From positions 73,780,001-73,844,000 of the forward strand of contig OX597830.1 in the NCBI GenBank assembly GCA_951406725.2: DNA of 64,000 nucleotides. The letters run 5' to 3'. The position numbers were made by a program, and so were the translations under genes. Under the pieces are notes generated by a model. It did not search any database, was not told where the DNA came from, and saw nothing but the letters and a program-made list of their open reading frames with translations. The DNA comes from Octopus vulgaris (lineage: Eukaryota). Shown here piece after piece: positions 3,861 to 13,951 of this stretch. Every line of letters begins with the position of its first letter. The stretch's first letter is position 1.

Positions 3861-4639
3861 AAGTCATAGATGTACGTATACATATAAGCGTATAGATTTG
3901 CATATTCATGTATGAAAGTACATACATACATACACACATACATACATACATACATGCATACACACACATATATATAAATATATATATATATATGCATATG
4001 TATACTTATATATACGCATATACATATTCATATATATACCCATATATGCTTACATATATATATATATACATACCTATATATATTTTTTTTTTATACATAT
4101 ACACACGCATATATATGTGCCTGTATGTATGTGTATTTGTGTGTCGGTTAATTTTACACAGAAATAGATGTGTCACATATCTGGAAAGCAGATATATATC
4201 AGTGCACTCTCAACAGCTGTCCCTGAATCGTGATGAAAGATACGTGGTTAAGGAAACATATGCAAATCGTCCATCGCGATTATAAAAAGATGAAAAAAGC
4301 CCTGAAAAGTACGTGTATGGTCTGACTTTTCATATATCTTACATTAGGAAATTAAAGGTAAATAACAAAATAGATAACCCCCCAACCTAGTTATTTCCTC
4401 CCATGAAGTGAGTAATTTGGAATTATGTACTCTTATGAGGAGAAAAATATACAAATTTGACATGAGATATGGAACATACAACCCCATATTTATTTGTGTA
4501 TGCAAGTATATATGTATGCATGGTTTCTATCTATCTGTCTATCTACCTATCTCTCTATCGGTCGCGTTCTTTCTCTGTATAAATATTTATGTGTATATGA
4601 ATATATGTGTGTATATACATACATGCGTCTGGGTGTGCG

Positions 4640-4703
<64 letters not shown>

Positions 4704-4874
4704 TACATATATATATATATGCGTATAAGGAGGGATGATCACTAAGTGGACATTCAATATGCGTGAAGATCACCTACGATCTAACCACAAAGAAAAGAAT
4801 GTTCTCTAGAGAAATTCAGCAAACACCAGAACATAAGCAGGTAAGACAGATGAAAATATACAAAATAAAGAATT

Positions 4875-4944
4875 AATCATAGACCGATTTCGTCATTAAC
4901 GATTTTACTTACGTAACACCGTCCGTGGACTCTTCAGTACAATC
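4875..4944 (-). ncRNA. Type I hammerhead ribozyme with extended stem II
   Basis: Minus strand: GAUUGUA-CUGAAGA-GUC..GACGGU.UUAC(GUAA)GUAA.AUCGUU..GAC-GAAA-UCGG-UC/UAUGAUU. Intact core, 7-bp stem I (with G-U pairs), GNRA-capped stem II, self-complementary AUCGGU stem III. Confidence 0.8.
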
Positions 4945-5010
4945 GTTGTAATTCAATATAAATTGTAGAACTATATACGGGTTGTCCTCATAAAATTAGA
5001 TGTGTGTACA

Positions 5011-5055
5011 GTTCTACCGATTACATTGGGGTTCTACCAATGTAATCGGTAGAAC
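5011..5055. repeat. Perfect 19-bp inverted repeat with 7-nt loop
   Basis: gttctaccgattacattgg-ggttcta-ccaatgtaatcggtagaac. Confidence 0.95.
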
Positions 5056-5097
5056 ATCTATATTTTTTTAACAAAATTTTCAATTTTCGAGATTTAT

Positions 5098-5205
5098 TTC
5101 ATCTGAAGAAGACGTTTGTTTTTTCGTTTTTTTGTTAATGATGTACTCGGTGTATTCGTCAATACAAAAAAGAAGAAAAAACAAGTCTGAAACAGGTGTA
5201 ACGTA
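5098..5205 (+). ncRNA. Type I hammerhead-like motif with ~80-nt stem II, weak stem I
   Basis: CUGAAGA(5103)-AGAC..long U-rich/A-rich hairpin..GUCU-GAAA(5189)-CAGGUG-UA(5200). Stems II and III pair; stem I has only 3 of 5 pairs. Confidence 0.65.
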
Positions 5206-5545
5206 CTTCAATTCATTTGTCTACTTTATGTAAACACCACACCTAGAACTTTCCCTGCATTGGATCTGGAATTCAAAGTGGATCGGGCAACTGCTTGCCG
5301 GCTTGCGAATGTATATTTTTCTGATACGTACATACATACCTATATACATACATAATTTTTCCGCCTTGTAAATGTAATTTACCCATTATTTTTGCTATTC
5401 TAACGACAATAATGGGTTCGAAAAATATCACCCACACGCATACAGACACACACACACGCATATACACACATACGCACGCGCATATACACAGGCACGCACA
5501 TACACACACACAGAGTTGCTGACACACACATAGATGCTTACATAT

Positions 5546-5584
<39 letters not shown>

Positions 5585-6214
5585 CACTTATACATACGCA
5601 CGCACATACGCACCCGCACACAGATACTCACACAAGCACACACATACATATATACACATACACACTCACGCACACACACGCGCATGCACACACATGTATG
5701 TGTGTATATGTGTATAAAACACCTGTATGGCAGAGCGGAAACTATAAATTGGGATTTACGAAGGACTTAAACTGTAAAAGTGTCATCTACGTGTGTCAGA
5801 ACATCTATGATACATGATGTGGGGATTAAGTGTTCGTGTATATATGTGTGCGTGTGGATTTGTGACAGAGTGCATGTTTGCGTATGAGTATGTGTATGAT
5901 AGGGTTCTAGCTCATTATGTTTTTGTTGCTTAGCTCCAGGTCAACTCTGACCGAGCAGTCCTGTGATCAAAGGCGTTTAAGCCGTGACCATTCAGTTGAA
6001 TTTCGGATAAGAGGAGGCGACAGGGTGTATTTAGTTGTACATTATATAAAGCATTAATATTATGACTCCTTTTTCTTGTAAGACAATAAGATATGGGGAG
6101 GGAAGAACAATTGGGTCTTATTTCTAGCAGGAAATGCGACCATGTAGAAGCTCTCCCGCATCTCATAATATATATGTATGTATCTATGTATTAAATAACG
6201 CGTATATGTGTGTA

Positions 6215-13213: not shown

Positions 13214-13290
<77 letters not shown>

Positions 13291-13369
13291 GCCATGATAG
13301 ATCGTTAGCCACTACACACATTTTTTCTCTCCTTTTTTCTCTGCTTGTTTCTCTCCTAGTTTTTTCTGT

Positions 13370-13411
13370 GTCCCTTTCTGTAGAAGAGCGTAGGCTCGAA
13401 ACGTAAAAGAC
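13370..13411 (+). ncRNA. Minimal hammerhead-like motif, core variant CUGUAGA (copy 1)
   Basis: GU-cc-CUUU-CUGUAGA-A-GAGC(GUAG)GCUC-GAAA-C-GUA-AAAG-AC; perfect stems I and II. Confidence 0.6.
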
Positions 13412-13498
13412 TTTTTCTATTCCTGAGCGTTATACTAATACATCTGTTTGTTTTGTTCACCACCTGTCTTCGTCTTTTGCTTTTTTCGTAAACTCTCC

Positions 13499-13576
<78 letters not shown>

Positions 13577-13670
13577 CTCTCTCTATCTTTCGCCATGATA
13601 GATCGTTAGCCACTACACACATTTTTTCTCTCCTTTTTTCTCTGCTTGTTTCTCTCCTAGTTTTTTCTGT

Positions 13671-13712
13671 GTCCCTTTCTGTAGAAGAGCGTAGGCTCGA
13701 AACGTAAAAGAC
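13671..13712 (+). ncRNA. Minimal hammerhead-like motif, core variant CUGUAGA (copy 2)
   Basis: Identical to 13370-13411, offset 301 nt. Confidence 0.6.
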
Positions 13713-13798
13713 TTTTTCTATTCTGAGCGTTATACTAATACATCTGTTTGTTTTGTTCACCACCTGTCTTCGTCTTTTGCTTTTTTCGTAAACTCTCC

Positions 13799-13951
<153 letters not shown>

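Follow-up and report, generated by a model that had tools for sequence, protein, structure and literature searches.

A head-to-head junction of two hammerhead-bearing repeat families beside a TA-rich microsatellite in the genome of Octopus vulgaris

Results

The window, which is the whole stretch of DNA analyzed here, comprises 64,000 nucleotides of Octopus vulgaris (GenBank assembly GCA_951406725.2, contig OX597830.1, positions 73,780,001 to 73,844,000 of the forward strand) and is dense in microsatellites. One of these, a (TA)n-rich microsatellite at 4578–4720, adjoins the 3′ end of a minus-strand fragment at 4722–5033, a 5′-truncated copy of a hammerhead-bearing non-coding repeat (family A), and is likely to have been its insertion target. 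On the plus strand, 5051–5319 was assigned to the 5′-truncated 3′ end of an older hammerhead repeat (family B) by a profile match with an E value of 3.8e-53. The two fragments lie head to head around a perfect 19-bp hairpin at 5011–5055 (arms 5011–5029 and 5037–5055), which was located where it had been predicted. Each fragment carries a type I minimal hammerhead motif, at 4875–4944 on the minus strand and, in a decayed form, at 5098–5205 on the plus strand, and the predicted cuts, one per strand, are 318 nt apart, in agreement with the spacing of about 320 nt given in the original prediction. Elsewhere in the window, a 301-nt unit is present at 13214–13853 in 2.1 tandem copies, which are 98% identical and flanked by (CTAT)n.

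The minus-strand hammerhead, which had been predicted with a core at 4931–4937 and a cut at 4882/4881, proved to be a complete motif and passed a strict type I descriptor (core plus stems I and II). The core, CUGAAGA, occupies 4937–4931 and the GAAA 4891–4888. Stem I (4944–4938/4881–4875) consists of 7 pairs, 3 of which are G-U, and two C>T changes (4941 and 4879) have converted stem I pairs to G-U; the base of stem II is formed by 4930–4928/4894–4892, and stem III is self-complementary with G-U pairs, a palindrome that allows a dimer. Over 51 copies of family A, 95.5% of the stem I cells were paired, as were 92.6% of the cells of the stems taken together, compared with 21–46% in slid controls. 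The core pattern was unbroken in 38 of 50 copies, and an exact core 20-mer occurs 21 times in the genome. Covariation in the family A hammerhead was not above that of shuffles, 65 of 500 of which reached the score. The monomer gave −11.7 kcal/mol in the hammerhead-shaped fold versus −16.9 kcal/mol in the free fold, and the family A hammerhead is predicted to cleave weakly, solely as a dimer or with the aid of a protein. Minimal hammerheads have been described as cleaving weakly in vitro, as dimers only (PMC4209133), and one of them as protein-assisted (PMC11167929).

The prediction for the plus strand stood in part: the core (5103–5109), stem II (5110–5113/5185–5188, with a long extension), the GAAA (5189–5192) and the predicted cut after 5200 are in place, whereas stem I is lost. 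Stem III is likewise present. A stem I of the expected 4–5 bp was absent in all 8 registers tried, the longest run being 2 contiguous pairs, and the motif failed the strict descriptor. In the allele of a separate study (sequencing run X3), core position U4 is also altered (5104 T>A). In other copies of family B, stem I has 5 bp and stem III is palindromic; 90% of the stem I cells were paired over 16 rows, 15 of which had been selected for intact cores out of 43, and the core pattern was retained in 15 of the 43 copies spanning the motif. Covariation above shuffles was not detected for the family B hammerhead either. The window's family B hammerhead is predicted not to cleave, and the pair is predicted to have no joint function.

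The hammerhead motifs are not a product of chance. When the descriptors were run on 2000 dinucleotide shuffles of 4722–5325, the strict descriptor matched none, and the descriptor without stem I matched 21 of the 2000 on one strand and none on both. An Rfam search at gathering and E-value thresholds returned no hammerhead family at either motif; minimal motifs are outside those models. For neither motif was the lowest-energy monomer fold the hammerhead fold.

Family A was characterized by searching the 2.8-Gb assembly with 4722–5325, which yielded 2033 candidates. The best 40 of these scored mostly 87–92% identity, and non-self matches among them covered only the first ~312 bases of the query. 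The family is a ~525-nt, circularly permuted, AT-rich, non-coding unit with one type I hammerhead, and its copies are either 5′-truncated monomers or partial tandems with a maximum of ~1.5 units. It has two preferred 3′ ends on (TA)n, ~100 nt apart; the window copy lies at one of them, and many copies end on (TA)n at that same family position. The window copy is 91% identical to 28 relatives (maximum 94%). Family A was present in both orientations at 26 of 52 independent loci and, by profile, in head-to-head pairs with itself at 13 of the 52, with varying breakpoints; both arms of such pairs span the hammerhead in 5 of the 52. Two complete hammerheads on the same strand were found at none of these loci, which are a partial sample, each genome search being represented by its best 40 candidates. 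At three loci (L140, L134 and L150), a boundary of the family A copy coincides with the predicted cut to within a few bases, being the end of the copy in one case and its start in the other two, numbers too small to speak of enrichment. Cousins of family A were also observed at L187 and at L126 (1619–1900), and L187 holds a divergent hammerhead pair, both members of which pass the descriptor.

The corresponding search for family B with 5034–5325 gave 47 candidates, of which the best 40 scored 67–85% identity and included no near-identical copy that could represent a close donor. The window copy is 72% identical to 16 relatives (maximum 81%), which were hand-picked out of 29 for long matches. 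Other copies reach about 400 nt further upstream, and an exact family B 20-mer occurs 251 times in the genome. A second B arm in head-to-head orientation was present at 16 of 68 independent loci, with varying breakpoints, and both arms span the hammerhead in 9 of the 68. Neither a left B arm nor any other copy of A or B was found in the window or within 8 kb upstream.

At the junction itself, comparison with 29 other family A loci indicated that 26 of them run on past the position corresponding to 5033 into shared family sequence and that 3 stop earlier, so that family A ends in a hairpin loop only at the window locus. Because those 26 loci continue in family sequence, the right arm of the hairpin (5037–5055) is regarded as a private inverted copy of the left arm, which belongs to family A. 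A genome-wide pattern search found the hairpin at this locus only, and in the genome search 5034–5120 matched itself alone. A direct repeat is also present at the junction, with 5031–5041 repeating 5011–5021, and the family B fragment and the hairpin arm have a few bases in common, a possible microhomology. A single contig of run X3 spans 4990–5353 with 11 differences; therefore, the junction is real DNA, and an assembly artefact was ruled out as its origin. Contigs of four sequencing runs contained no pre-insertion allele, and in the two of these runs that derive from other organisms no contig crossed the junction. There was no RNA run among those listed as containing the sequence. These results are evidence neither of absence nor on expression.

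No other head-to-head join of A and B was found at the 52 A loci or the 68 B loci. Two weak cross-matches between the families were noted: in L009 a 45-nt match lies ~1 kb away from A, and in L104 B and an A-like cousin are placed tail to tail across (TA)n. The original prediction had offered either an ambisense ribozyme cassette or a head-to-head union of two Penelope pLTR fragments of unrelated origin, and had named joint recurrence of both halves and the hairpin as the mark of a single element. The genome search supported the unrelated fragments, as the halves recur as independent repeat families that were found adjacent only in the window, and the hairpin is confined to this one locus. Separate recurrence with adjacency at this locus alone was the first of two outcomes that the prediction itself had listed as refuting. 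The membership of the halves in different families also bears out the earlier statement that the locus is no recent inverted duplication, and such a duplication of one hammerhead was ruled out.

A single viroid-like ambisense cassette, giving rise to circular RNA of both polarities, could be suspected from the two divergent cores with their cuts on either side of a perfect hairpin, from the strong folding of 4882–5200 (z about −5) and from the presence of the junction in the DNA of a second study. However, the halves recur separately and the hairpin is limited to one locus; stem I of the plus-strand motif is broken and its core is mutated in the X3 allele; and there is one cut per strand, with no flanking repeat besides the TA-rich tracts that could close a unit-length circle. 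The original prediction had also pointed to viroid-like RNAs whose cores face each other across a rod, but the region between the cuts is branched, and the linkers flanking the hairpin are unpaired, pairing no better than shuffles (80 of 300 equally good). The rod argument is in any case uninformative, because in any two divergent hammerheads that share the CUGAAGA/GAAA core, each will fold against the complement of the other. We therefore regard such a cassette as extremely improbable.

Families A and B resemble Penelope elements in that their hammerheads are minimal, their targets are (TA)n and their copies are 5′-truncated and can be inverted; partial tandems were seen in A only. Intact elements with a reverse transcriptase (RT) and a GIY-YIG endonuclease are present in the genome, with direct and inverted terminal repeats. 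The profiles of A and B matched none of 30 GIY-YIG loci, and two PLE proteins of the genome found no RT+GIY-YIG ORF in the window or at 30 further A loci. Since they are without such an ORF, A and B are non-autonomous at best. One of 30 B loci holds a GIY-YIG piece, unlinked and on the opposite strand, and no ORF upstream of B was reached in 20 loci taken for its upstream part. No autonomous partner was found that has sequence in common with either family. Two candidate links were rejected: the A-like match in the GIY-YIG locus L126 belongs to a short, distinct cousin flanked by microsatellites, and the endonuclease-like end found close to A in L140 is on the far side of a long microsatellite.

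An indirect link between B and a partner pLTR may run through a further family, D, whereas A and B themselves were tied to no ORF. Family D (877 candidates) is recognized by the B profile over the hammerhead region (E values down to 7e-10). Its end lies on (TA)n, and in the upstream direction the family reaches at least 1.75 kb. At L204 and L213 it leads to a decayed ORF with CxCX5C, VIY..YTG and CxH motifs, which is on the strand of the hammerhead and precedes it by ~1.9 kb. The Hydra clade of Penelope elements has been described with (TA)n targeting, hammerheads, occurrence in molluscs and these same three motifs (PMC8557442), and family D shares with it, by motif reading, the CxCX5C linker and the CxH upstream of the hammerhead. 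Family D may thus be a Hydra-clade Penelope-like element, an assignment that stays at the motif level because Pfam gave nothing above cut-off on the upstream frames and a homolog search with the endonuclease piece (longer proteins only) scored none of 47 candidates. The ORF of L213, on the minus strand at C13:33.33–33.34 Mb, is a decayed Hydra-like frame with an asparagine-rich insert before the endonuclease, reminiscent of the N-rich inserts reported from Penelope elements of rotifers, and the ~1.9 kb between this ORF and the hammerhead are AT-rich.

Several other Penelope-type structures were observed in the same searches. At L124 (2925–3409; C1:183.008 Mb), a 489-nt palindrome, 96% perfect, adjoins a Penelope terminal repeat and contains, in divergent orientation, two minimal hammerheads with CUGAUGA cores that belong to another family. 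L123 (2745–5087) holds an intact 781-aa RT+GIY-YIG element between direct repeats (930–1385 and 5717–6172) that are 99.3% identical and show, as read by eye, an apparent U3:A8 variant hammerhead core; this family is probably recent, because at least 15 listed copies share the 781-aa frame. The element at L127 (574-aa frame) has an inverted terminal repeat of 766 nt (1321–2086/3718–4483), which is 100% identical and contains no hammerhead by descriptor.

Taken together, the locus is a head-to-head join of two repeat families, which most probably arose when the young, non-autonomous Penelope-type family A was reverse-transcribed into (TA)n beside an older Penelope-type remnant of family B. A Penelope GIY-YIG endonuclease would have cut the (TA)n next to the old B copy, and reverse transcription would have copied ~312 nt of A RNA before stopping. 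The free cDNA end may then have slipped and, by folding back, served as template for 19 nt of its own sequence, which would account for the hairpin; a few shared bases could have mediated its joining to B, with loss of the sequence upstream of B. That B is older and A was inserted later is inferred from divergence, measured for B on the 16 hand-picked copies; a pre-insertion allele was not seen in the contigs of the four runs, and no target-site duplication is readable in the (TA)n microsatellite.

Alternatively, one insertion may have used two templates, with a Penelope protein cutting both strands and priming cDNAs on A RNA and on B RNA that were joined head to head. In vitro, the protein PAc is able to cleave both strands and to extend them (PMC11167929), and families A, B and D all frequently form head-to-head pairs with themselves. 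Furthermore, a second cross-family join was found, in which the 3′ 100 nt of D lie head to head with A at L160 (1500–2100; C26:15.077 Mb) and L161 (C10:6.493 Mb); both outer ends are on (TA)n, and D and A have a similar within-family identity. However, L160 and L161 share flanks, and the D|A join was therefore counted as one event; in addition, the window B copy stands at 72% family identity versus 91% for A, and the best 40 of 47 candidates offer no near-identical B donor. An insertion from two templates is, accordingly, considered unlikely.

Another explanation is that a later deletion or double-strand-break repair merged two neighboring insertions, the hairpin being a repair fold-back unrelated to retrotransposition. 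The short direct repeat, the fold-back and the few shared bases at the junction would fit such a process, breaks in yeast are reported to show short templated inverted duplications of ~5–34 bp (PMC11724301), and the palindromic copies of B could be fragile. This extra event is, however, not needed, because 5′ inversions and truncations are routine in family A, as reflected in its presence in both orientations at half of the loci, and 5′ palindromes of 18 to 38 bp have been described for Penelope pLTRs (PMC3846280). We consider break repair very unlikely, and it would in any case lead to the same conclusion, that is, two unrelated fragments.

Discussion

Penelope elements have already been described as having hammerhead pairs on opposite strands, short palindromes at the 5′ end and insertions nested in opposite orientation. 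In EN+ Penelope-like pLTRs, dual minimal hammerheads ~100–700 bp apart on opposite strands have been reported (PMC4209133), and the motifs at the present locus resemble these in the short stem I, the long stem II, the palindromic stem III and the dispersed single copies. They differ in that they come from two families, mixed cases being unmentioned in that paper's description of the pairs. Head-to-head junctions have also been described for the Penelope elements of Adineta vaga, together with palindromes of 18 and 38 bp at pLTR 5′ ends, 5′ joins by microhomology without target-site duplication, and a Pen2a copy inside Pen3 in opposite orientation (PMC3846280). The inverted junction, the palindrome, the possible microhomology and the probable opposite-orientation nesting in the window are similar to these insertions, although the Adineta vaga elements carry ORFs, whereas the A and B fragments in the window do not. 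Inverted 5′-truncated Penelope copies have likewise been described (PMC8557442), and the ~100-nt distance between the two 3′ ends of family A exceeds the optional tail of 30–40 bp given in the same paper. The literature found on Penelope hammerheads in octopus and cephalopods did not report families A and B, and supplements may list them.

Family A is also comparable to the non-LTR retrozymes, as it is non-coding and AT-rich, has one type I hammerhead per permuted unit and is dispersed as monomers and partial tandems. The typical retrozyme unit is, however, ~300 nt (PMC7229834), with a range of 51–972 bp (bioRxiv 10.64898/2026.07.22.740005), compared with the ~525 nt of family A, and two complete same-strand hammerheads per copy, as expected of a retrozyme, were not seen in the partial sample of 52 loci. 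Avsunviroidae and viroid-like RNAs are described as circular replicons with an active ribozyme in each polarity and no DNA form (PMC10162972). The present locus is like the paired-ribozyme members of this group in having one core per strand within a few hundred bases, but differs from them in being a one-off genomic junction with one decayed ribozyme and no recurring joint unit.

The window locus is therefore a fossil junction of two retroelement remnants, that is, ordinary transposon debris, which matters little as a locus, and family A, as a young retrozyme-like repeat, is a more testable object than the junction. More importantly, the locus provides a warning that opposite-strand hammerheads around a hairpin, which are the signature used in viroid-like screens, arise routinely from Penelope-type inversions in animal DNA, because both arms span the ribozyme at 9 of the 68 B loci and 5 of the 52 A loci. 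Cross-family head-to-head joins were observed twice, as A|B in the window and as D|A at L160/L161, and the existence of the latter suggests that such joins may be more than accidents. It is conceivable, but rather improbable, that Penelope elements generate cross-family joins as an inherent part of their mechanism, either through two-ended priming or because their nucleases attack each other's pLTRs. If cross-family joins were enriched, they would inform how Penelope elements build inverted structures. If the joining were indeed built in, mixed hammerhead cassettes of opposite polarity would keep arising in animal genomes, and this would provide a host route to viroid-like paired-ribozyme RNAs.
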